A DNA stretch of 64,000 nt from Mobula hypostoma (taxonomy: Eukaryota), in assembly GCF_963921235.1 (NCBI RefSeq), contig NC_086097.1:172486001-172550000 (forward strand), in the 5' to 3' direction. Made by a program: the position numbers and the translations under genes. The notes beneath the pieces were generated by a model. That model searched no databases. It was not told the DNA's origin and saw nothing but the letters and a program-made list of their open reading frames with translations. Below, in pieces: positions 37,063-60,882 of this stretch (its first letter is position 1; every line of letters starts with the position of its first letter).

Positions 37063-37664
37063 GTCTTTTGTACTCCAGGGGGTGACTAGCTAATTGATTA
37101 ATTTATGAGAAGTACTGTAGTTAAAAGAAATTAGGGTATTTTGTCTGGAATTTCTGTGATAGATATTTACTCCTTAGCTGTTTAGTAAACTTCCTTTTTA
37201 AACACAGCAGCTGCCACTTTTAAGATCAAAACACATCTAAGTAAACTTCGCAACAATATCTCAGTGTTTAATTTCCGGTCATAAAACAGGAGGAGTCAGT
37301 CTTTAGATCCTAAAATGTACAAATGTAGATGGAGGGCAGTAATCAGCTTTAAGTTTAAAAAGACGTAGCTTTGGAAACAAGCTCCACATATAGTATACAG
37401 GCATTCTGTCTATGAGAATATGCTAGCTCACTGAACCTGCTTTATTGCTGCTCAGAAGTGCAGAAAAAGAAAAATGGGTTGCTTAATTTGGTTTGTTTCA
37501 ATCAGACAAGCTGACTAAATTGCTTAGTTCCAGGAAGCTTGCAGACCAGATGGATAATATTATTTAGCTTATCAAATAATTGATCTATTAAAGTTGAGAG
37601 ATTTATGTACACAAGGTTGTTAGTTTTACAGTATTAATTGTGGAACTGTGTCTTCATTTGGGAT

Positions 37665-38020: not shown

Positions 38021-38340
38021 GTTCCAAGGTGTTTTTAATCCTTTGGTGCTAAAAGGGTATCTGGGGAAATGTCATTTGCAGGTGGAGTCACCCAAGTTGG
38101 AGAAAAAGAGTATAAATGCAGACAGCAGCTAAGGCTTATTAGAAATGTGGTAAAAGAACATCAAGAGGAAATGCTTTTTTTTAGGAATAATTTGTGATTT
38201 AGAAATGTTTAAGATATTTCTAATATCTAATATATTCTAGCTGTCCAAATCAAAGTGAAATCATTCCTTTGGAAGCCCTGTTGCATATTTAGCACAGTAA
38301 CTACTCAATATTGTATTAATTTACAACTGAAAATATTTGG

Positions 38341-40590
38341 ATCAAATAAGTTCAGAAACAAAGGTTCTGAACTTAAAGAGGGGTGACTTTGAAGGTATGA
38401 GACGTGAATTAGCTAAGATAGACTGGCAAATGACACTTAAAGGATTGACGGTGGATATGCAATGGCAAGCATTTAAAGGTTGCATGGATGAACTACAACA
38501 ATTGTTCATCCCAGTTTAGCAAAAGAATAAATCAAGGAAGGTAGTGCACCCGTGGCTGACAAGAGAAATTAGGGATAGTATCAATTCCAAAGAAGAAGCA
38601 TACAAATTAGCCAGAGAAAGTGGCTCACCTGAGGACTGGGAGAAATTCAGAGTTCAGCAGAGGAGGACAAAGGGCTTAATTAGGAAGGTAAAAAAGATTA
38701 TGAGAGAAAACTGGCAGGGAACATAAAAACGGACTGTAAAAGCTTTTATAGATATGTAAAAAGGAAAAGACTGGTAAAGACAAATGTAGGTCCCCTGCAG
38801 ACAGAAACAGGTGAATTGATTATGGGGAGCAAGGACATGGCAGACCAATTGAATAATTACTTTGATTCTGTCTTCACTAAGGAGGACATAAATAATCTTC
38901 CAGAAATAGTAAGGGACAGAGGGTCCAGTGAGATGGAGGAACTGAGCGAAATACATGTTAGTAGGGAAGTGGTGTTAGGTAAATTGAAGGGATTGAAGGC
39001 AGATAAATCCCCAGGGCCAGATGGTCTGCATCCTAGAGTGCTTAAAGAAGTAGCCCAAGAAATAGTGGCTGCATTAGTGATAATTTTTCAAAACTCGTTA
39101 GATTCTGGACTAGTTCCTGAGGATTGGAGGGTGGCTAATGTAACCCCACTTTTTAAAAAAGGAGGGAGGGAGAAACCGGGGAATTATAGACCGGTTAGCC
39201 TAACGTCGGTGGTGGGGAAACTGCTGGAGTCAGTTATCAAGGATGTGATAACAGCACATTTGGAAAGCGGTGAAATGATCGGACAAAGTCAGCATAGATT
39301 TGTGAAAGGAAAATCATGTCTGACGAATCTCATAGAATTTTTTGAGAATGTAACTAGTAGAGTGGATAGGGGAGAACCAGTGGATGTGGTATATTTGGAT
39401 TTTCAAAAGGCTTTTGACAAGGTCCCACACAGGAGATTAGTGTGCAAACTTAAAGCACACGGTATTGGGGGTAAGGTATTGGTGTGGGTGGAGAATTGGT
39501 TAGCAGACAGGAAGCAAAGAGTGGGAATAAACGGGACCTTTTCAGAATGGCAGGCGGTGACTAGTGGGGTACCGCAAGGCTCAGTGCTGGGACCCCAGTT
39601 GTTTACAATATATATTAATGACTTGGATGAGGGAATTAAATGCAGCATCTCCAAGTTTGCGGATGACACGAAGCTGGGTGGCAGTGTTAGCAGTGAGGAG
39701 GATGCTAAGAGGATGCAGGGTGACTTGGATAGGTTGGGTGAGTGTGCAAATTCATGGCAGATGCAATTTAATGTGGATAAATGTGAAGTTATCCACTTTG
39801 GTGGCAAAAATAGGAAAACAGATTATTATCTGAATGGTGGCCGATTAGGAAAAGGGGAGGTGCAATGAGACCTGGGTGTCATTATACACCAGTCATTGAA
39901 AGTGGGCATGCAGGTACAGCAGGCGGTGAAAAAGGCGAATGGTATGCTGGCATTTATAGCGAGAGGATTCGAGTACAGGAGCAGGGAGGTACTACTGCAG
40001 TTGTACAAGGCCTTGGTGAGACCACACCTGGAGTACTGTGTGCAGTTTTGGTCCCCTAATCTGAGGAAAGACATCTTTGCCATAGAGGGAGTACAAAGAA
40101 GGTTTACCAGATTGATTCCTGGGATGGCAGGACTTTCATATGAAGAAAGACTGGATGAATTGGGCTTGTACTCGTTGGAATTTAGAAGATTGAGGGGGGA
40201 TCTGATTGAAACGTATAAGATCCTAAAGGGATTGGACAGGCTAGATGCAGGAAGATTGTTCCCGATGTTGGGGAAGTCCAGAACGAGGGGTCACAGTTTG
40301 AGGATAGAGGGGAAGCCTTTTAGGACCGAGATTAGGAAAAACTTCTTCACACAGAGAGTGGTGAATCTGTGGAATTCTCTGCCACAGGAAACTGTTGAGG
40401 CCAGTTCATTGGCTATATTTAAGAGGGAGTTAGATATGGCCCTTATGGCTACGGGGGTCAGGGGGTATGGAGGGAAGGCTGGGGCGGGTTCTGAGTTGGA
40501 TGATCAGCCATGATCATAATAAATGGCGGTGCAGGCTCGAAGGGCCAAATGGCCTACTCCTGCACCTATTTTCTATGTTTCTATGTTTCT
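38341..40590 (+). mobile_element. Young 5'-truncated CR1 (RT and C-terminus)
   Basis: ORF 38816-39868 has all RT motifs and continues past a CGA>TGA stop; near-identical to 56674-57665. Confidence 0.95.
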
Positions 40591-42435: not shown

Positions 42436-43045
42436 TATAAACCCGTGAGGTTAGGATGTCTTACCCACCGAACCCTGATTTGTGTGAAAACTGTGTAACA
42501 TACTGCTCCCATGCAATCACCGTTGGCAGACAGTACACTACATACAATTATAAAGAAAGTATATTTAGGAATGTTTGCTTAGCCAAACAATTATTAAAGA
42601 AAAGAAAGAAAAAACAGAAGGGCCCATCAGAGTTAAGAAGTCAAATATGCATAGGTCGGAGCTCAAATCTTCCAGAAGGCTGTTGTGTCCAATGTACTCA
42701 CGGTGCCAACTCCTATTCACCAATCCCCAGTAGAACTTCGTCCTTTTGGGCTCCATTAAATCATGCATTTCCACAATATTCCTATGGCTAGTTCTCTCGA
42801 GCTTCTCTCTCCATCTACTGCCGAAAATGACCTTAACCCACCTCAGTGTCCATCCCTTTTCCCCCAGCTATCTCCAGAACCTTCTCCCAATTCCAGCATC
42901 CTGACTGGATAACACAACATTCCTAAGCATCCCTTATCTTTAATGGTAACCCAAACACCACCAGCAGAACACACAGTTTCTACAGAAAACCATTACATGA
43001 AATATCCTACAACATTAGCAATAAAGTCTTTATCAAGGTGTTACA
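42435..43045 (-). mobile_element. Probable solo LTR
   Basis: Ends 'ggtgttaca' at about 43045; left end degenerate; layout resembles the other minus-orientation LTRs here. Confidence 0.55.
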
Positions 43046-43049
43046 GATA

Positions 43050-44600
43050 GAAATCTTCAGTGAGTTTTAAATGTGCTTTAAGAATGCACTCTTTATTACA
43101 TTAATCCCCTTCTCATTTTGTTTTCCCTGAGCTGCAGAGGTGGGAGTGGACATTTGGGAGGGCACTGTCTCTCCATATATCTAAAGGATGAATAATGAGA
43201 TGGATCTTGCGGCATGTGCTCAGTTTCATACTCTTCATAATATCAATGGGGCCTTGAATGCTCTCTGTTTTGGAAGGAGTATCTTGGTCTCAGACTTTTT
43301 TTCTGCAAAGGCAGGGTAGAGTTAAAGGTCATGGCCTATTCCTGGTGTCTATCCATCTAAGTTATGGGTGGATATCCCTATCTAAGGCAGGCGGTCTCCA
43401 GGGAACTTGTTTGGTTTGTTGATTATGTCTTTGCTGCTGAGAGGCTGTGGTAGAATGGTGTGAGTGGGATCAACCCAAGGGATGAGGTTTGTTAATGACC
43501 TGACATTCACTTTAAAGGCATAAAGGGAGGGCTCTGTGCCAGCCCATCGTTGCCCTTGTGTGGGAATGAATGGTAATCCTACTACCACCATGTGGGTGCG
43601 CAAGATCTCTTGGACAACCTGAAATTGTTCAGGTATTCGCTGTTGATTAAGAGTTATTCCACACATGCTGCAGAGATTTTCACTCAGATAAAGAAGTATC
43701 ACTATAGAATGGACAAGGTTCCAGCCTGCCCTTGTCATTTGCTCTCTGACCCTATCAGCGGTTATTAAGCCCTGGCTTTTGGCTGTTTTACTCAATATAA
43801 TAGTAAGTACTTCACATACAGCTGTACCATTTATATGTTTATAAATCCTATCATATGTCTGATATGGATTTCCACTCTCGTGTGGAGTTTGTACCAAGGC
43901 TATGGGAAATAACCTTAAAAAGAACTGCTGAATATGTTGAGTATGACTGGCCCAGAAGGCCTCTAACCTCCCATCAATCTGCAGTGGCACTTCAGAATTT
44001 CTTCAGGATCAGCTGGAGACATGACACATGCTGCCTGCAAATTCTGAGTAGTCCAAGGTCCAAAAGCTTAATGGGATGTTTGTACTGGAGAAGCTGCAGT
44101 GGCTCCCTGTACAGGAGTCTGTCCATGTATATTTCTTTTTATTGGCTTCAGTCAATCTTTTTATTATTTCTATTGTATGTTCCCAAGCATCTGTTCTATA
44201 GGCTTCATTAGCACATCTCGAATAGGGGTTCCCAACCTTTTTAATGCCATGGACGTCTGTTATTAACTGAGGGGTCTGTGGACCCCAGTTTGGGAACACC
44301 TGCTCTACAGTTTACTGGTGAGGGTTCTACCTCCTGTGTGCATTTAGGAATACATGATACCCCTATGCATCTGGAATAAGATACGGGTCACCAGCTTCTA
44401 TCACATAAGCATATGGTGCCCACCCGGGTGCTTGGTTTTTATCCAAAAAGGGGCCAATTTGTTGCCTCCAGGCACAGATTACTGCAACATTGCTTGAACC
44501 CAGTACAACTTATGACGGTCTGAGTCCAGCAGGTCTAACAATGGGGTTTGGTCTGCCTAATCTGCATCCTATTCAATGGTACATGTTTAAACCCAAACAA
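43050..44600 (-). pseudogene. gag: Foamy-virus-like gag (N-terminal domain remnant, capsid-like domains, basic tail), inverted
   Basis: PGWAPYAYVIEAGDPY (GDPY at 44381-44392) vs PFV PLRFGPLANGHYVQGDPY; TQNLQAACVMSPADPEEIL (about 43993-44050) vs IQHIRSVTGEPPRNPREIP; ORF 43382-43990 IYKHINGT...SQGLITAD...GWNLVHSIV...VVGL vs LFIRTHGT...QEGVATAY...NYQLVSGII...ILGL. No Cys-His knuckle seen. Confidence 0.8.
44224..44302. mobile_element. hAT/Charlie-type MITE (about 80 bp) inserted in gag
   Basis: TIRs (t)aggggttcccaacc / gtttgggaacacctg; TSD not clean. Confidence 0.7.
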
Positions 44601-45878
44601 CATTCTGCCCGTTATTTCCTCAAAGAACTCCAACAGATTTGTCAGGGAAGATTTCCCCTTAAGGAAACCATGCTGACTTCGGCCAATTTTATCATGTGCC
44701 TCCAAATACTCTGAAGCATCCTTAATAATAGACTCCAACATCTTTCGCACCAATGAAGGCAGGCTAACTGGCCTATAATTTCCTTTCTACTGCCTCCTTC
44801 CTTTCTTAAATAGTGGAGTGACATTTGTAATTTTCCAATCCTCAGGAACCATTCCAGAAATTAGTTTTTCTTGAAAGATCACTACTCATGCCTCCACAAT
44901 CTCTTCAGCTGTCTCATTCAGAGCTTTGGTGTGCAGTCCATGGTGACATCTACCGTCAGACTTTTCAGCTTCTCAAGCATCTTCTCCTTAGTAATAGGAA
45001 CAAAACCCACTTCTTCCCTCTGGCACTCTCACATTTCTGGCATTCTGCTCGTGTCTTCTTGAGTCAAGACTGATAGAAAATACATATTAAGCTCCTCTGC
45101 CATTTCTTTGTCCCCACCCCCTCCCCCATTACCACCTCTCCATATCCACTCTTGTCTGTCTTTTACTCCTTATATATCTGAAAATATGTTTTGTGTCCTC
45201 TTTTATATTACTAACAAGCTTACCTTCATATTTCATCTTTCTCTCTTTAGAGCTTTTGTAGTTGCTTTCTGATGGTTTTTAAAAGCCTCCAACCCACTAC
45301 CATCCCATGAATTTTTGCTCTATTTTATGGCCTCTCTTTTGTTCTTATGTTGTCTTTGACTTCCCTTGTCAGCCATGGTTTCCTCATCCTCCCTTTAGAA
45401 TACTTCTTCATCTTTGGGATGCATCTTTCCTGCACCTTCCACATTTTCCCCAGAATTACCAGCCTTTGATATTCTGCCGTCATCCCTCCTTGTGTCCCCC
45501 TTCCTATCAACGTTGGCCAGCTCTTCTGTCATGCCTCTGTAATTCCCTTTACTCCACTGTAATACTGATGCATCCAATTTTAGTGCCTCCTTCTGAGACT
45601 GCAGGGTAAATTCTATCATATTATGATCACTGACTGCTAAGGGTTGCTTTACCTTCAGTTCCATTATCAAATCTGGATCATTACATAGCTCCCAATCCAG
45701 AATTGCTGTTCCCCTGTTGGGCTAAACCACAAATTGCTCTAAAAATCCATCGTACAATCGTAGAATGCCATTATGGGCATTCTACGATCCCTCACCCCCC
45801 CGGGATCCAGCACCAACCAGGATTTCCCAATCTACCTGCATATTGAAATTTTCCATGATTATCCCAACATTGCCCTTT
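44601..45878 (-). mobile_element. CR1 ORF2 internal fragment lacking both ends
   Basis: SDHNMIEF...KPWLTREVK...SQHGFLKGKSSLTNLLEFFEE, ending abruptly at the gag junction with no 3' tail. Confidence 0.9.
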
Positions 45879-48526
45879 CACCTGATTATGCCTGACTGTT
45901 CTCAATTTTTAAGATGATTATATGACATTTGTAAACCAAAAAAATGCAAAACATTTTTTAATCCCTGAAGATAGAGGTACTAGAGAAATCGATGAATATT
46001 GTTCATCAAGCAATAAACTTTTGAACTGACCTAACAAAATTTCTTCTATGAATTTGTGTTTCTCTAAAAACTGCTGTAGCCACTCACTATAATGAGGGTG
46101 AAGAAACACAAGCACCCATACACTATACCTCATATAATTTCACCTCATATAATTTCACCTCAACAGAATTCCCTGCCTGAATGCTACGGTATTCCATACA
46201 TTTATTGCTGTAAGGCTATAGCAAGGAACAAACCAATTATTATATAAACAGAGCTTGCAGCCTTGAAAAATGATATAAATTACCAACAAATGAATGGAGT
46301 GCTAGATATGGCAAATGGCAAATACTTTTACAAGACATCAGCTTAAAGTTAGAATATGTTCCTGAGAGCTATGACTTACAATCTTTACCTTTCATGGAAG
46401 ATGTAGAACCATTTTATCCGTGACCTAATGTAGCACGACATCCTTTGGAGCACTATTCTTATATACGGTGCTGTGATGGATCAGCATTGAAAATCCAGAA
46501 AGATGGATCCACTCTATTATAATGCTGGCTCCTGAGTATACAAAGAAAACTTCTTTAGAAACTGAATTTGAACCATATGAGATGCCAGTGCATCCTTTGG
46601 GGAATCATAAGCTCATCTTGCAGAACTTGAAACGCTGGAATTATGTCTGAAACAAGCTAATGTAACAGAACCAATCTTGATATGTAATGACTGTGATTAT
46701 GTTAGGAATGTGGTTAGAAAGGGCCGGCTGGTGGCACAATGACATCAGCGCCGGACCCGGGAGTGGAGGTTCCTGGGTTCGAAACTGGTTGGGTCTGCCC
46801 CCAAGCACGCTTTCTATCCGTGCCGGGTTGAGTGTCGAGATCGCAACTCGACCTTGTAAAATAAAGGGAAAATATGCTGCGAAAATGTCTGTGTGGGGAG
46901 TGGTGCACCACGGTCTCTCTCTCTCTCTCTCTCTCACTCTGCGCCTTGGAAAAAGCCATGAAAAGTCCATCGTCACAGATGCACGCACGGACACACAGAC
47001 ACACGGATGCGCACAGACTCGCACGCACGCAGGCACACGCCAATAAAAAAAAAGGAATGCGGTAGAAAGAGCTCATCTGGTCAACGATCAAATGGAGAAC
47101 ACACAAAGGTAAGTACTTCCACATTTGTCCACATGGAAGAATATTATTGACTAGATCATTAGTACAGGTTTTACACATCCCGGAACATAGTGCAGGCCTC
47201 TTACACAGCTGTGGTAATAAACTAAGTAATGAACAAGTAAAACAAGCTGTCAGGATGGACCTTACTACGGTAAGGGAGACAGGGTTTTGCTAGTAAGTAA
47301 GTAACAAATAAAAATAACCAGGATGATGTTTTAAGAATTCTCCTCAATACTACTGAACCCAATTACAAAGGATTTCCAACGGGGTACGAATATGACACTG
47401 ATGGTGAAAGGAAGGCTTCGGTGTGCTGCCCTAAAGAAAAGATAAGAAGCAAATGCCTCCTACCCACAAGTGGGAAACGCTGATTCAAGAAGCCCACCCA
47501 GGAGCCAGATACAGTCACAGTGGCGGACAAGCTACATGTGAAATTAGTCATGTTACACTAGTTCCTTCAATGTTGAGTGATTGTAAGTAATTTGTTGTAA
47601 ATAGTAAAGAATGTCTAGTCTATATTAAAGGAGCAGTCACAAGACCACCTGTGAGAAGACAAACAAAACCAACTGCAGCATTGCAGGTGTGGAAATTGAT
47701 TATATAGGGCTATTTCTGGCATCCCAAGGCAACCCACCTTATCAGAAAGCTGATAAATATATATGTGTGATCACTGAGCTTTGTACAGGATATACGTGGT
47801 TAGTCTCCATGACTTCTTGAGATCACAACCATCACAACACCCCCACCTGCATACCTGCTGACCATGGATCTTCCTTCCCTGGTAAAGGCTTTCAAGTCAT
47901 GTGTGAACAACTAGGCATACAGGTGGAGTACAGCACTCCCTTCCAGATGCATGGCGGAACAACGAATTGAGACATTAAAGAGTCCTGGCAAAACTGGTCT
48001 ACTCTAGAGGCAAAACAGGCTACACTTGTCCCCGAAGTGCAACAGTGTGTAAACAATGTGCTTAGTGTAAATAAAGGAATACAGAAGAATGTTACACGTT
48101 ATTTCTTAATGTGCAATGTCCACTTTAAAAACACCCCTGATTGCTAACTCAGGCCAACCATTGCCTACAGCTGATTCAGCTCTCCGTACAGAATTGAGAG
48201 AGTTTATGGGAACCTGACAAGGCAGCCTGGAGAGCACTAAAGGGGGACTGAGCTCCAAGAAGATGAAATTTCATAAAAATAATTCTGACTCCGGTTTCTG
48301 TCCTAGGTGGAAACCTTGTCTCATTAACCAGGTTATCAATGATAGGGCTGTAGCAATCAAGACTGGAAGGGGAAACAAGATTGTAAATAAAGCTGTCTCC
48401 ATAGATAACATCCAACCTGCCCCAACAGGATTATTGGCGCAGAATGAGTGGTACCCTCATATGAGACCAGTACATGAGTCCACCACGGAACACCTGCAGC
48501 CTGACGGGAAGGGAATTGAAATATAA
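45879..48526 (+). pseudogene. pol: Foamy-virus-like pol: RT thumb/connection, RNase H, integrase
   Basis: HYNEGEETQAPIHYTSYNF (46085) vs PFV YYNETGKKPIMYLNYVF; RHPLEHYSYIRCCDGSALK vs KHPSQYEGVFYTDGSAIK; PLGNH/AHLAE (46594) vs PLGNHTAQMAE; LPHLSTWKNI vs LKHISKWKSI; NYKGFPTGYEY (47361) vs YIKGYPKQYTY; IDYIGLFLASQG (47695) vs IDYIGPLPPSQG; TGYTWL; ADHGSSF; GIQVEYSTPF; PRWK...VINDRAV...GN...VSIDNI vs PRWH...VLNPRTV...GNNRTVSIDNL. Confidence 0.93.
46722..47053 (+). mobile_element. tRNA-derived SINE with poly(A), inserted in the foamy RNase H
   Basis: A-box-like 'tggcacaatg', B-box 'ggttcgaaac', poly(A) 47045-47053, about 17-bp TSD ggaatgtggttagaaag / ggaatgcggtagaaag. Confidence 0.9.
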
Positions 48527-49892
48527 AACATATGTTTAGAGCGAACAAGCAACAAAAAAAATTCTAGTTCACATAAGGAAGATCTCCTAGATAAATTGCC
48601 CAGGGATAGTGGGCAATGATCCCGAATGTGTTGTTGCTTTCAGACTAAGACAGTCTCAAGCTCCAGGAGACTCAGCTCCATTTTGCCGCATTTTACTCTT
48701 AATACTTGTGCTTGTGATTATATTGTTCAGAGCTGCCTTACTCACCATTTGATTTTTCGCATCCAAAGTCACATTTGCTACAGATATGATCTCATCTGAC
48801 TCAGTAACTCCTAAAACTTAATGACTCTGAGAATGTTAGATTAAGGGGACCTGTGAGCAATGATGATTGTAATTTAAATACCATTAAATGGTCCTTACTT
48901 CTTGGTCATATGTGAAGTCATTGGAACCCTTAATTCTTGCCTCTAGCAAAGTGATTGTTACTGTGCACTTAAGCATTCACTCTGGCCACATTACAGATGA
49001 AATAAACATAATACGTGAGAAGGCAAAGAATCACTTGCAGAAATGATTAATAACACCCTAACAAAACAGAAAGATTCCAGCACAGATATTGGAAGTTAAT
49101 GACTAGAGGAATCCCAGCCTTTGATCCGGGTTTTTGCATGGAAAGGTACAATGGAAAGATGCATTGAAGCAGAATGCAAGATAAATGAAAATATTTTCCT
49201 CCTTGACCAACTGGAACTGATAAGACCATAAACCTTTAGGAGATTTTAATCCCATAGACTATTGTATCTATCTGGATATCCTATATGCCCTTAATCAAAC
49301 AGTCGTGAATAGTTCATGCTGTGGTGCAAATAATATCTTACAGTGAAAATTACTTCAGAATTACACTTTGGAAAACAAGGAAACAAACCAACGACCAATT
49401 ATACAGTTGGACACCAATTGATAATGCTAAATGTTGCTAAAAAAAATCAATTCATGATGAATTTAAAGGATATTCTAGAAGGATGGTATTTGGTAATAAT
49501 GGCAGAAAGAAGCTCAGTGAAGTTAAGAGAATATTTCTCTTTACATTACAAGAGTAACAGAACTGACACAATCAGACAAGCAAGGGATCTCCTTTCACAA
49601 ATTTCCTTTGCAGACTCATACCAATCCCAAGACTCATACCTGACTGGCTTAATGCTTTAGCTGAAACAGTAGGTAAGACCTTTCTAACTGTTTCAAATTT
49701 AGCTTCTGCAGCAGTAAATACATTTTCCAGATGAATTAGCATTACTCTAAATTGAGTTGAAGATTTTTTTTTGCAGTTTTCCAATGGACAATTCCCATAG
49801 CTATGGGAATTATTGCTTTTGTAAGTGTTCTTTTTGCTGAAATGTTGAAACCAGCAAGGATAGAGAATTGTTGTCTTCTGCTTTTAATATAA
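48440..49892 (+). pseudogene. env: Foamy-virus-like env (leader peptide, SU start, TM C-terminus; large internal deletion)
   Basis: Hydrophobic ILLLILVLVIILFRAALLTI (48690-48749); EPLILASSKVIVTVHLSIHSGHI...EGKESLAEMINN vs PFV EPIVVKERVLGLSQILMINSENI...EVKKLLTEMVNE; DTIRQARDLLSQISF...IPDWLNALAETV vs EQIERAKAELLRLDI...TPAWIQQLAAAT; anchor WTIPIAMGIIAFVSVLF vs YLKPILIGVGVILLVILIF. Confidence 0.82.
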
Positions 49893-50144
49893 TGGCACCA
49901 CTCCTAAGACTTTGTTAATTCCAATACTTAACCTGCACTGCTGTGGGTTATCTCTTGATTGGCTGTGATTCCTTTGCTGCACACTCCCTTGTACTTGCCT
50001 CTTTACCTATTCATCTGGTTCATCCTCCACCTTGGAAGAGCAAAAAACAAGGATTACCTTGATCGCGTTACCATTGCCCCTCTCCTTTTCCTAGTCCTGA
50101 TTACTAACATTGCACACAGGTACGCATGTTTCATGTCTCATCTT

Positions 50145-50152
50145 GAGAGGGG
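50145..50152 (+). promoter_or_regulatory. 3' polypurine tract (GAGAGGGG) of the provirus
   Basis: Purine run one base before TGTGATG at 50154, resembling the foamy AGGAGAGGG-TGT junction, about 250 bp after env. Confidence 0.7.
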
Positions 50153-50590
50153 TTGTGATGTGTCATGAATAATTGGTCTAATAACACAATCCCTGGAAAG
50201 ATGTACCAACAAACATTATTTTTTACTTACCTATTTGGATGTTCTATATTTACATTTTATCATGGGTAACGTTTTATATAATATGGTTCTTAAGATTTTA
50301 CATACTGTAATATAAATTTATTAATGTGTAGTTCATTGCTGATGATAACATTACACTATCATGGTTTGAACCTTTGATTTTAAAACCATCAATAATTACT
50401 ATATTTTGTGTGTCATTTTACTCAATGGTAAAAGACTTACCAGGACAAGACAGATGGCTAGCAAAGAGCAATGTTGAGCAATGCAAGATAGCTACCTCTG
50501 AGTAATGCTATAATCCTGATAACCTTTTTACCTATCCTGTTGAGGTTTCTTCGAAAACGGAGATGTAATCCTAGACCTCCAAGGTTTACA

Positions 50591-51925
50591 ATTCCACCTT
50601 CCAACTACATTGGATGCTTTCCATTTCATCTACCACTCAAGCTGGTCCACTGATAATGCCATATCCTCAGCCCTCCATTCCGTCTTGTCCCACCTAGAAA
50701 AAGATGCCTCATATACCAGGATCTTATTCATCGACTTCAGCTCAGGGTTTAACACAACCATCCCTCAGAAGGCTGGTGGGTAAACTGTCCTCATTGGGAC
50801 TTAACTCCCCTTTCTGTAGTTGGATCTTGGACTTCTTGATGGAAAGACCCCCAGACAGTTGGAGTTGGCAACAACATTTCAAGCTCCATTATGCTGAGCG
50901 CAGGTGCCATTCTCCCCTCCCCTCCACCCCACGGCTGTGTGCTCAACCTGCTGCTGTTTACACTGCTGACTCACAACTGCACTGTCAGACTTGGCTCAAT
51001 CCCCATCATCAAGTTCACTAATGGTACAACAGTGGTTGGCCCCATCACCAATAACCATGAATCGGCAAACAGAGAGGAGGTAGAGAGGCTTGACAAATGG
51101 TGCGTGAACAATAAACTGAGTCTCAGTGTGCTCAAGACAAAAGCGATGATGTGGACTTTAGGAAGACACAGGTCGACCTCTCTCCATTACACATCAATGG
51201 CTCTGCCATGAAGAGAGTACAGAGCTCAGATTTCCTCAGTGTGTACATAATGGATGATCTAACCTGGTTCCACAACACCTCCTCACTAGTCAAAAAGGCA
51301 CAGCAGCATCTGCACTTTCTGAGGTGATCGAGCTGTACAAGGCTTCACGGCTCAATTCTAACAGCTTTCTACAGAAACACCACTGAGAGTGTCCTGTTTG
51401 GCTACATCACTGTGTGATACAGAAGCTACAAGGCTTCGGACTACAAGATGCAACGGAGGATTGTGAAAACCACCGAGAGGATCACCAGTGTCTCCTTCCC
51501 CCACTATTTGTGACATTTATTGAGAGCATTGTAAATGAAAGGCCCAAGCATTGTGAGGATCCCTACCACGCATCCCACAACCTTTTTGACCCAATACCAT
51601 CAGGAAAGCAGTACAGAAACATCAGGCCAAACTGGGTAACAGCTTCTTCCCTCGGACTAATGAATACCCTGCCACACCTGAGATCTCATCACTAGCACAG
51701 TGCACTCTTTACTGATTACTGTACTGCTTTCTGTTTACTGTTTACCTGTGCTGCACACGACATAGATTTTGAATTATATTTTATTAGCTTATTCATGGTT
51801 ATATTTTTGTTCACGTTTTGTGTGTTCTATATGTTTTGTGGGTGCCCCGTTGCCCAGAGGAACGTTGTTTCACTTGTTTGCATATATGTACAGTCAGGTG
51901 ACAATCAACCTGGACTTGATCTTGA
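50591..51925 (+). mobile_element. Rex1/Babar RT and 3' end inserted in the putative foamy LTR
   Basis: ILFIDFSS, LCSWILDFL-like, PHGCVLNLLLFTL, IIKFTNGTTVVG; (CTTGA)n tail. Confidence 0.85.
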
Positions 51926-52084
51926 ACAAAGCTTTATATTGTTACAAGATAGAACAATTAGAATGTGCTTACAATTTGAGTATAAGCATATAATATTTGC
52001 GTGGTTCCCCTACAGTAAAACACATGGGACCACTAAGTCTACCAATACTGCTATTCGTGTTATAATTAACGTTACTAGAATAGT

Positions 52085-52178
52085 CCTGCTGAAGGGTCTC
52101 AGCCCGAAAAGTTGACCGTACCCTTTTCCTAGATGCTGCCTGGCCTGCTGAGTTCCTCCAGAATTTTTGTATGGGTTG
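52085..52178 (+). mobile_element. Penelope-derived mini-insertion with a degenerate hammerhead motif
   Basis: TSD ctagaatagt at 52075-52084 and 52179-52188; 'ctgctgaagggtctcagcccgaaaagttgac'. Confidence 0.8.
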
Positions 52179-53085
52179 CTAGAATAGTTTATATATTTGG
52201 TTGATAAATTCTCATGGTTTGACAGAGCAGACTTAGTAACCTTGCTCTGTTAAAGTTTTCTGGGAAAACACTAAAGTTGGGAAGACGTGTCAGTTCTTCT
52301 CTGTTCGGCCCAATCTTTAACAAACTAAAGGGAGAAGACCTGAACAATTATACCCAGACCTCAGAATCATGAATATGGGAAGAAGCTGATGCAGATAGTA
52401 CGATTGGTATCGGAATGTTAAGGTACAGCATACCAATGGGTATTCGCTCCCATGGGAGGGACATAACCAACCCCGAGGTTCTGACATATCTTTCTGAGAA
52501 ACTAGAATTAAAGAGAAAGACAGAATCCTCAACACGAGAACTGTTCTCTTTCTTACTTTGGTAAATATTTCTTTTTTTTTATGTACATTATTATATTGTG
52601 AGGTAATTTAACTCTTATATATAAATTTCTGTAACTAAAATATGAGATTACTAAACCTTAGGCAAAAGGAGACAGCAATACACAATCTGTAACTTTTACA
52701 AGATTTCTGGTTTAAGATAATGCTGGTGAAGCTCAGTGACTACTTGCTGGTGGCAAATAAAAGAAAAAAAACAACTAAGTACTTTATTAATCACACTTTT
52801 TTTCTGGTAAGTGATCATTGCAAACAGTAGACTGTAACTTCCCTGTTGGAGTTAATCATTTGAACCGCCTGTCTGACCGAGCATTTTTGTGGTGGGAGCT
52901 GAAGTCTCGAAGGTGCAGAACAGTTGGGGTGTGGTGTGTACAGGCTACATCAAGGCAGCAGGGTCCAGCACGGACAGAGGAGAGTGAGCCAGCGTTTGGC
53001 TGGTGTTGGCTTGGAAGCAGGAAGTCCAACACCCAGTTGCACAGTGATGTATTTAGACCGAGGAGCAGGAGTTTGTGGACAATAG

Positions 53086-53619
53086 AAACACTCACAATGC
53101 GCTGGAGGAACTCAGCAGGTCAGTCAGCATCAGTTGAAAAGATTAGTTGACGTTTCGGGCCGAAACCCTTCGTCAGGACTGAAGGAAGAACTTTGGAGAG
53201 GGTTTGACGAATGCTGGTAGTTGAAAAAAACAGTAATTTGAAAGACAAAGGGGTGGGGGAGGGGAAGCAGGGAGGTGATTGGCAGGAGAACAATGCACAG
53301 TAGTAGAAGGAGGCGGAACTATGAGGGAGGTGATGTGAAATAGGGATAGAAGAAGGGAGGGGGAGGGAAATACCAGAAGTTGGAGACTTCTATGTTAACA
53401 TAGAGTCCCTGCTTCCCCTCCCCCACCCCTTTGTCTTTCAAATTACTGTTTTTTTCAACTACCAGCATTCTTTAAACCCTCCCCAAAGTTCTTCCTCCAG
53501 TCCTGACGAAGGGTTTCGGCCCGAAACGTCGACTAATCTTTTCAACTGATGCTGACTGACCTCCTGAGTTCCTTCAGCGCATTGTGAGTGTTCCTTTGAC
53601 AACAGCATCTGCAGATTAT
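53086..53619. mobile_element. Fold-back Penelope-derived element with hammerhead motifs on both strands, 14-bp TSD
   Basis: TSD tttgtggacaatag at 53072-53085 and 53620-53633; about 190-bp inverted arms; motifs at 53145-53180 (-) and 53499-53534 (+). Confidence 0.9.
53499..53534 (+). ncRNA. Minimal type I hammerhead ribozyme motif
   Basis: agtc-CUGACGA-a-ggg-uuucgg-ccc-GAAA-C-GUC-gacu; predicted cleavage after 53530. Confidence 0.8.
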
Positions 53620-56673: not shown

Positions 56674-57665
56674 GTTGTTTACAATATATATTAATGACTT
56701 GGATGAGGGAATTAAATGCAGCATTTCCAAGTTTGCGGATGACACGAAGCTGGGTGGCAGTGTTAGCAGTGAGGAGGATGCTAAGAGGATGCAGGGTGAC
56801 TTGGATAGGTTGGGTGAGTGGGCAAACTCATGGCAGATGCAATTTAATGTGGATAAATGTGAAGTTATCCACTTTGGTGGCAAAAATAGGAAAACAGATT
56901 ATTATCTGAATGGTGGCCGATTAGGAAAAGGGGAGGTGCAACGAGACCTGGGTGTCATTATACACCAGTCATTGAAAGTGGGCATGCAGGTACAGCAGGC
57001 GGTGAAAAAGGCGAACGGTATGCTGGCATTTATAGCGAGAGGATTCGAGTACAGGAGCAGGGAGGTACTACTGCAGTTGTACAAGGCCTTGGTGAGACCA
57101 CACCTGGAGTATTGTGTGCAGTTTTGGTCCCCTAATCTGAGGAAAGACATCCTTGCCATAGAGGGAGTACAAAGAAGGTTCACCAGATTGATTCCTGGGA
57201 TGGCAGGTCTTTCATATGAAGAAAGACTGGATGAACTGGGCTTGTACTCGTTGGAATTTAGAAGATTGAGGGGGGATCTGATTGAAACGTATAAGATCCT
57301 AAAGGGATTGGACAGGCTAGATGCGGGAAGATTGTTCCCGATGTTGGGGAGGTCTAGAACGAGGGGTCACAGTTTGAGGATAGAGGGGAAGCCTTTTAGG
57401 ACCGAGGTTAGGAAAAACTTCTTCACACAGAGAGTGGTGAATCTGTGGAATTCTCTGCCACAGCAAACTGTTGAGGCCAGTTCATTAGCTATGTTTAAAA
57501 GGAAGTTAGATATGGCCCTTGTGGCTACAGGGGTCACGGGGTATGGAGGGAAGGCTGGGTTCTGAGTTGGATGATCAGCCATGATCATAATAAATGGCGG
57601 TGCAGGCTCGAAGGGCCGAATGGCCTACTCCTGCACCTATTTTCTATGTTTCTATGTTTCTATGT
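56674..57665 (+). mobile_element. Very young 5'-truncated CR1 inserted in a SINE tail
   Basis: Uninterrupted frame from LFTIYINDL to the stop at 57565; (TTCTATGT)n tail. Confidence 0.95.
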
Positions 57666-60250: not shown

Positions 60251-60582
60251 TGTTCTTCCAGAATTCTGTGTTTGTTTCTCTGGATTTCCAGCATCTGTAG
60301 AATCTCTTGTGTTTCTGAAAAACAGCCTCCCCTCTACTGACTCTGTCTACACCTCCTACTGACTCTGTCTACACCTCCTGCTGCCTCAAGAAAGCAGCCA
60401 ACATAATCAAAATCCTCCTCCCGGCTGGTCATTTTCTCTTCTCCCTCCACTCATCAGGCAGAATATACAAAACTGTGAGAACATGTACTGCCAGCTCAAG
60501 ATCATCTTCTATCTCACCACTGAATGGACCTCATATACAAAAAGAACTCCTGATCTCTTGTGTCTACCTCTTGGCTTTTGCA

Positions 60583-60882
60583 ACACACATCAAAGTTGCT
60601 GGTGAATGCAGCAGGCCAGGCAGCATCTCTAGGAAGAGGTACAGTCGACGCTTCAGGCCGACACCCTTCGTCATGACTAACTGAAGGAAGAGTTAGTAAA
60701 AGATTTAATCTCTTTAAGAGAAAAAGTCTCTTACTAACTCTTCCTTCAGTTAGTCCTGACGAAGGGTCTCGGCCTGAAACGTCGACTGTACCTTTTCCGA
60801 GAGATGCTGCCTGGCCTGCTGCGTTCACCAGCAACTTTGATGTGTGTTGCTTGAATTTCCAGCATCTGTAGAATTCCTGCTG
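60583..60882. mobile_element. About 300-bp fold-back Penelope-derived element with opposed hammerhead motifs
   Basis: TSD tcttggc/ttttgca at 60569-60582 and 60883-60896; about 125-bp inverted arms; intact motif 60752-60787 (+), mutated motif 60643-60678 (-). Confidence 0.9.

Follow-up and report, generated by a model that had tools for sequence, protein, structure and literature searches.

The stretch analysed here (the window) comprises 64,000 nucleotides of the genome of the ray Mobula hypostoma (NC_086097.1, positions 172,486,001 to 172,550,000 of the forward strand) and contains the remains of an endogenous retrovirus (ERV) with parts of gag, pol and an env-like gene. This element very probably belongs, as a dead and rearranged copy, to an ancient foamy-like ERV family, whose Pol would have been made by read-through of a stop codon at the end of gag and which would have given rise to a derivative, devoid of reverse transcriptase (RT), that was copied in trans. 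The provirus itself is real and very probably foamy-like. A foamy-like identity is supported by the sequence similarity of Gag, RT and integrase (IN), by a primer-binding site (PBS) of Lys1,2 type and by the apparent lack of Cys-His boxes in Gag. The family is classed as foamy-like and not as a strict member of Spumaretrovirinae, because pol continues the gag frame behind a stop and has no ATG of its own.

Within the window, a six-frame scan of 42500-53500 gave integrase-type matches on the plus strand and a spumavirus Gag match on the minus strand. The integrase of prototype foamy virus (PFV) was the top PDB match for the window integrase piece (E=2.7e-6), and Pfam matches to rve (E=1.2e-4), Integrase_H2C2 (0.045) and, at the IN C-terminus, PF18103 SH3_11 (E=2.6e-5, slightly below the family cut-off) were also recovered. 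A stretch of 206 codons without stops inside the window gag, at 43385-44002 on the minus strand, matched PF20672 Gag_FV_central (E=5.8e-4), as did 6 of 13 Gag fragments of the family (best E=4.6e-9); the cut-off of this profile was passed by 3 of 36 candidates across the genome. Other copies supply the RT. The fingers and palm of one copy scored 70.7 bits against foamy Pr125Pol (7O0H) and 54.5 bits against 7KSE, compared with 17 bits for Ty3, and no orthoretroviral RT was matched at E<=10 in the PDB search; an RT thumb piece matched PFV 7KSE at E=3.2e-8, as against 0.39-0.53 for RTs of murine leukaemia virus (MLV) type. Ty3/Gypsy or Odin elements are marked by a Ty3-like RT and the lack of env, and the family departs from both, with 17 versus 70.7 bits and an env-like gene of ~2.1 kb after pol. 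The original prediction of a Gag without zinc knuckles agrees with the finding of a CCHC box in none of 14 gag loci, a test weakened by decay. A C-terminal RPRYSLR stretch in Gag is taken here to resemble the foamy chromatin-binding site. In addition, a VN-VI site ~20 residues upstream of the stop resembles the foamy p3 site, for which the cleavage pattern VX|XV is given in PMC5210030; statements from cited papers, here and below, refer to the parts of those papers that were available.

The sequence motifs from which the provirus had been proposed were mostly confirmed. On the plus strand, pol carries HP..DGSALK at 46439, PLGNH at 46594, IDYIG..SQG at 47695, TGYTWL at 47785, EYSTP at 47926, PRW at 48302 and VSIDN at 48395, and the env-like gene carries EPLIL at 48924, LAEMINN at 49034, IRQARDLL at 49571 and PDWLNALA at 49639; gag shows GDPY at 44392, PADPEEI at 44016 and NGTAVC at 43831 on the minus strand. 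The N-terminal motif of integrase is present at 47367 (plus strand) and reads KGFP, not KGYP as had been stated. All eight tested pol motifs are present, as against at most three of eight in 1000 shuffles, a partly circular comparison as the motifs were taken from the same sequence. Searches of other kinds added little. Neither the Gag ORF (open reading frame) nor the Gag profile had a PDB match, the frame spanning connection and RNase H found nothing relevant in PDB, and the predicted Gag structure was of low confidence (pLDDT 51), with uninformative fold searches. Protein database searches gave no usable relatives apart from a single weak match of 22 residues, viral contigs and plasmids gave none, and the Gag ORF had no match in Atlas.

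The genome searched measures 3.48 Gb in 200 contigs. Of 632 candidates returned by a pol/env DNA query, the 40 that were scored mostly matched at 70-78%, and queries with parts of the long terminal repeat (LTR) returned 1602 and 3691; these candidate numbers are not copy numbers, but indicate that proviruses run into the hundreds and that solo LTRs are far more numerous. With gag and pol colinear in other copies, the family layout would have been LTR, Lys1,2-type PBS, Gag without zinc knuckles, pol, env-like gene, post-env region, polypurine tract (PPT) and LTR. The LTR is ~1.07 kb long, of the form TG...CA, with an 8-nt terminal inverted repeat and the ends TGTGATGG...CCATCACA. After the 5' LTRs of six copies comes a decayed PBS resembling the foamy Lys1,2 PBS TGGCGCCCAACGTGGGG, the sequence quoted for human foamy virus (HFV) in PMC3386198; the window copy has lost its PBS. 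The target site duplication is probably 4 nt. Among 10 LTR loci, three solo LTRs were usable, with both ends readable, and in this small sample a hand count gave agreement at 9 of 12 letters for a 4-nt and at 7 of 15 for a 5-nt duplication, the former being about what is expected under ~25% pairwise decay.

The 3' end of the family was placed by two copies in which the PPT lies ~1.7 kb downstream of env. At the PPT/LTR border one of them reads GAGAGG followed by TG and the other reads GAGGAGGG before being cut; GGGTG is expected at this border in foamy-like ERVs (PMC5210030). Eleven of 40 scored genome matches start at the LTR start adjoining the PPT, ~1.5 kb beyond 50147. At ~50147 itself, the motif GAGAGGGG-T-TGTG had been put forward as the PPT/LTR junction, a claim that could not be upheld: two other copies align straight through it without keeping the motif, and none of 40 scored genome matches to 49850-50595 starts there. 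The assignment of 50150-52700 to U3 was likewise rejected, since copies align through 50147 and the LTR start lies further downstream.

In the 18 copies that span the gag/pol junction, the reading frame of the Gag C-terminus runs on into protease through a single codon, which is TAG in nine, TAA in two, CAG in four, TAT in two and TCA in one, and thus a stop in 11 of 18. No in-frame ATG follows the boundary in 17 of these copies, over an aligned stretch of up to ~33 codons, extending in most of them as far as the protease Asp; the one remaining copy is frame-shifted. The spliced pol mRNA with its own start codon by which Spumaretrovirinae are recognised accordingly seems to have no counterpart here. 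In mammalian foamy viruses pol is expressed from such a spliced mRNA with a separate start codon (PMC3705302), and in murine leukaemia virus (MuLV) gag, UAG and pol lie in one frame (PMC4178896). Judged from the sequence, read-through of the gag-end stop is the reasonably favoured source of Pol, because gag, stop and pol share one frame, as in MuLV, and pol lacks an ATG of its own, unlike the spliced foamy pol. Alternatively, Pol may have come from a spliced mRNA in the foamy way, with the gag-end stop doubling as, or lying near, a splice acceptor. This possibility deserves some weight, as mammalian foamy viruses splice pol (PMC3705302) and the boundary triplet is YAG in 13 of 18 copies, with G next in most, which fits an acceptor; it is made doubtful by the position of the pol start codon, which in a spliced scheme lies 3' of the acceptor, where 17 of 18 copies have no in-frame ATG. 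Splicing would alter the expression step alone and would leave the other parts of the explanation preferred here untouched.

Two forms of pol exist in the family. Three anchors (protease start, RT motif A and RT thumb) were measured in 48 loci and matched in 30, which divide into 14 of a short form, 10 (9 copies) of a long form and 6 untyped, so that the short form makes up 14 of 23 typed copies; one short-form locus served as the reference and one was chosen via a short-form search. Two pairs of loci, L023/L026 (C2:229.79 Mb) and L028/L037 (C1:208.43 Mb), overlap and were each counted once. In the short form the gaps between anchors are ~10 and ~15 nt; in the long form they are 442-1100 and 206-238 nt, or motifs of LPQG/YVDD type lie upstream. 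The first deletion (~660 nt) removes most of the protease and the RT fingers and the second (~215 nt) the region from RT motif B to YxDD, and all 11 loci with measurements for both gaps carry the two deletions together. Short direct repeats occur at both deletions, and deletion at short direct repeats is the usual trace of RT template switching. Stops and frameshifts are found in every long-form copy examined. A lack of RT throughout the family is contradicted by the nine long-form copies and by DNA unique to the long form, which gave 97 genome candidates and matches in 40 of 40 scored; one search had seemed to show the short form alone because its query was a short-form copy.

These observations suggest that, during the burst in which the family amplified, template switching by RT at short direct repeats gave rise to a derivative that lacked ~660 and ~215 nt and would have retained LTRs, PBS, PPT, gag, RNase H, integrase and env DNA. 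Since copying without protease and an RT active site depends on helper enzymes, this derivative would have spread in trans, with the full-length, long-form members as the obvious helpers, and among typed copies it is at least as numerous as they are. It is most improbable that the short form of a foamy-like element instead spread by segmental duplication, or by retroposition of one defective copy mediated by long interspersed elements (LINEs). LINEs are abundant, and their twin-priming can produce gag/pol inversions such as those of the window and of at least two further copies (C9:31.33 Mb and L009). Nevertheless, short-form copies differ among themselves (Kimura two-parameter distance, K2P, 0.28) as much as from long-form copies (0.27), and L046 (short form) and L034 (first edge kept) still carry a 5' LTR, its U5 end included, together with the PBS, and L046 the U3 start as well, unlike processed copies. 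Moreover, LTR DNA flanks the window inversion on the left, as a genomic inversion predicts, and twin-priming was ruled out as its source for this reason.

Further losses were noted in individual copies. At two loci, C1:235043366-235043775 and C18:81616198-81616685, a similar extra stretch spanning the junction of gag and pol is missing (query 118 to 234/246), which may mark a sub-lineage or reflect a splice-like join. In L034 (C40:66074133-66078279) gag and the protease start are joined straight to the post-env region, with nearly all of pol and env gone, a further type of deletion.

Several results weigh against the combined reading of a foamy-like family with read-through Pol and a trans-copied derivative. 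At the gag/pol boundary, 4 of 18 copies have CAG in place of a stop. The long and short forms are weakly separated on a tree of RNase H-IN, with 2 changes as against 4.9-5.0 in shuffled data, and do not form single clades, and the one diagnostic column that splits them does no better than shuffles; such weak separation fits an early origin of the derivative within a brief burst, or else recombination of one form with the other. The window copy has lost the region concerned and cannot be typed as long or short, diagnostic columns having failed as well. The env-like assignment is a weak point, resting on position, hydrophobic layout and motifs resembling those of foamy Env. No relevant Pfam match (foamy Env PF03408 and fusion glycoprotein PF00523 included) was obtained for Env in 36 decayed frames or fragments, nor any match in three PDB searches or, under a stricter look, in nine genome candidates; the foamy profile scans that had been suggested as a check gave matches for Gag (PF20672) and none for Env. 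The A9 protease (PF03539, Spuma_A9PTase) was matched by none of 24 genome candidates and none of seven long-form frames, with control genomes equally silent.

Finally, the placement rests on best matches among solved structures, and these hold no fish foamy-like, loki, snakehead or ERV-L proteins. The enzymes of another class III or basal retrovirus (lokiretrovirus, snakehead-like/clade Huo or ERV-L-like) could look foamy simply because the nearest solved structures are foamy, the loki, snakehead-like and ERV-L-like groups being absent from PDB. Loki and foamy RNase H fall in one group (PMC7947760), one ERV lineage of Callorhinchus milii is snakehead-like (PMC4422223), an in-frame gag-stop-pol is an orthoretrovirus-like trait, and the foamy match for Env is missing. 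Such an origin is nonetheless unlikely. Gag matches the spumavirus-specific PF20672, whereas loki Gag is described as MuLV/Ty3-CA-like (PMC7947760); loki Env is described as PF00523-like, a family absent from the matches of the 36 frames and fragments mentioned above; and the Lys1,2 PBS, the lack of a Cys-His box, the SH3_11 domain of IN and the 4-nt target duplication agree with foamy-like elements (PMC5210030).

Germ-line entry appears to have been followed by amplification in one short burst. The tree of 29 copies is a star with end branches of ~0.13 and none of its 26 inner branches well supported, and mean K2P over 406 pairs is 0.264, or 0.226 after masking CpG-like columns. The same insertion as in the window species (A) is present in two other species, B, which differs at 68 of 3626 positions (1.9%), and C, which differs at 157 of 2741 (5.7%), both far closer than paralogues; this comparison used eight long pieces among those listed, from one sequencing run per species. 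The original prediction of an old lineage, with its proposal to look for orthologous insertions in relatives, is supported by these insertions and by the ~0.13 divergence per copy. Among the runs listed, no RNA data set carried the window insertion. Set against the 5.7% difference between A and C, the divergence of the copies makes the burst about four times older than the A-C split. The absolute age depends on the rate and is roughly 50-60 My at 2.2e-9 per site per year and 230-260 My at 0.5e-9, the rate applied to catshark in PMC10699275. Paired-LTR dating gave no date, as neither of two copies examined had both LTR ends.

The window copy begins ~6 kb to the left of the start at 43050 that had been proposed. 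Its 5' LTR is in three plus-strand parts: 37155..37656, which starts with TG and is 68-77% identical to 5' LTRs of other copies; 38023..38214, followed by ~4.8 kb of later insertions, mainly a CR1 LINE; and 43036..43090, truncated at the left inversion breakpoint and matching the LTRs of L027, L034 and L045 at 81-88%. The PF20672-matching gag (43086..44578, minus strand) is inverted relative to pol and env, has lost ~200 nt at its 5' end and carries stops and frameshifts; gag is colinear with pol in other copies. Within it lies a miniature inverted-repeat transposable element (MITE; 44219..44302, no strand assigned) with visible terminal inverted repeats. At the right breakpoint, a CR1-type LINE fragment (44580..45880, minus strand), recognised by a weak RVT_1 match and by homology to other LINE copies of the window, stands where the PBS/5' gag and 5' pol have been lost, and contigs of organism B bridge both its joints, gag/CR1 and CR1/pol. 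The gag, pol and env genes had been described as colinear; gag is in fact on the minus strand and pol and env on the plus strand with the CR1 piece between, the inversion having been missed.

Protease and RT polymerase core are absent from the window copy, and its pol begins at the thumb end, at ~45888. Its first part (45888..46721, plus strand) covers the end of the RT thumb, the connection/tether and the first half of RNase H, at 70-73% identity to copies whose upstream thumb matches foamy PR-RT. A short interspersed element (SINE; 46722..47053, plus strand) with a target duplication of ~16 nt interrupts RNase H, whose second half is followed by integrase (47054..48450, plus strand), with zinc-binding domain, core and SH3-like C-terminus matched by PFV integrase, rve, Integrase_H2C2 and SH3_11; ~50 nt are missing near 47820. 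The env-like gene (approximately 48520..49900, plus strand), assigned by position and layout in the absence of a profile match, has an N-terminal hydrophobic helix and a C-terminal membrane anchor, and two internal losses of ~320 and ~360 nt appear as gaps against other copies.

The post-env region, ~1.7 kb in the family, gave no foamy match in nine frames searched for tas/bel2 accessory genes and no Pfam match. Its first part in the window (49900..50591) is a candidate accessory-gene region and not LTR; the second (51926..52085) and third (52181..52703) were recognised by alignment to family copies, all three on the plus strand, and homology stops at 52703, short of the PPT. Between them lie a LINE fragment (50592..51925, plus strand; PF09004 E=2.3e-10; a gap against L034, L046 and L047), which we take to be Rex1-like following the name given earlier, and a short high-copy repeat, the "mini-PLE" of the original prediction (52086..52180, no strand assigned; repeat families D12/D13). 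The earlier view that this repeat, the Rex1-like piece, the SINE and the MITE are insertions holds, all four being gaps against other copies. Hydrophobic sequence common to three copies, together with a second, charged stretch near the PPT, makes the post-env region look like decayed coding DNA (window 49900-50400, L034:3600-4030, L047:410-800). A search reaching 8 kb past the window end recovered no 3' LTR. Of the provirus originally predicted, with gag, pol, env, PPT and LTR, the foamy-like Gag and integrase stand, whereas protease and RT core are missing and a 3' LTR was not found.

One inversion and a CR1 insertion at the right breakpoint would account for this layout. After its insertion, the copy would have had the segment between breakpoints in the 5' LTR and at the gag end inverted, received the CR1 insertion with loss of adjoining viral DNA, taken up four further transposable elements and lost its 3' end, the order of these rearrangements being tentative. 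Internal inversions are also seen at C9:31335550-31337280, L009:457-1284 and L013:690-1409, involving gag or part of RT against the rest, or lying within env, and inversion is therefore recurrent in these old copies. Among the repeats of the window, the CR1 pieces 39598-39897 and 56674-56973, the former inside the proviral 5' LTR, are 99% identical over 300 nt and belong to a young LINE family, and the short high-copy repeat family occurs at 53084-53595 and 60580-60850 as inverted pairs that match almost perfectly (96% over 190 nt; 93% over 135 nt).

An endogenous foamy virus of cartilaginous fish was reportedly published by Wang, Chen and Cui in 2023 (J Virol 97:e01816-22), judging from the title an element of like kind from the same class of hosts, and the lineage may therefore already be known. 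In the literature searched, which did not extend to supplements or to the texts of Wang 2023 and Chen 2021, no account turned up of a foamy-like family in rays, of a foamy derivative that is non-autonomous or of read-through from gag into pol in a foamy-like element; the papers compared also included PMC9040795, PMC6001957, PMC8227577, PMC11468914, PMC10581153, PMC12386078 and PMC12323578, as far as their text was available. Cartilaginous fishes stand near the root of foamy virus history, and the literature compared gives mostly pol fragments for them; hundreds of copies, with orthologues across species, supply gag, env, an accessory region and a dated lower bound for this branch. The in-frame gag-stop-pol bears on when Gag-independent Pol expression, a foamy hallmark, arose, and the RT-less derivative, if trans copying is true, would imply that foamy-like genomes can be mobilised in trans within the germ line. 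It is conceivable, at a tentative level, that the family represents a basal chondrichthyan foamy lineage in which Gag-Pol read-through predates spliced pol, and the first endogenous foamy-like family with a derivative lacking protease and RT that was copied in trans until it rivalled its parent.

Among known systems, CmiFLERV of C. milii and other foamy-like ERVs (FLERVs, clade Tu) likewise place foamy-like pol in a chondrichthyan, and fish FLERVs share with the ray family a Lys PBS and a post-env accessory region (PMC5512871). In the available text of that paper pol alone is detected in C. milii, whereas the ray copies together hold gag, an env-like gene, a post-env region and LTRs; unlike FLERVs, the ray family has no extra genes between pol and env. 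With CoeEFV of the coelacanth and the mammalian Spumaretrovirinae (PFV and marmoset foamy virus structures) it has in common the best RT/IN matches, PF20672 Gag, the Lys1,2 PBS, the lack of a Cys-His box and a post-env region (PMC3386198). CoeEFV Env matches pfam03408 over 887 residues (PMC3386198), whereas env of the ray family, of the ~2.1 kb given above, gave no match on decayed single copies; mammalian foamy viruses splice a pol with its own AUG, whereas pol of the ray family lies in the gag frame behind a stop. ERV-Spuma.0-Sca of Scyliorhinus canicula, with 293 elements, is named as a Spuma ERV and likewise comes from an elasmobranch, reported in catshark only in a screen of 12 chondrichthyans; compared by description only, it has no Gag domain found and an RT described as ZFERV-like in the available part of the report (PMC10699275). 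Endogenous foamy fossils are called rare (PMC8922424), in contrast to the hundreds of copies in the ray. The element is of a kind already reported in cartilaginous fish, of which the non-autonomous derivative and the gag-stop-pol junction make a noteworthy variant.

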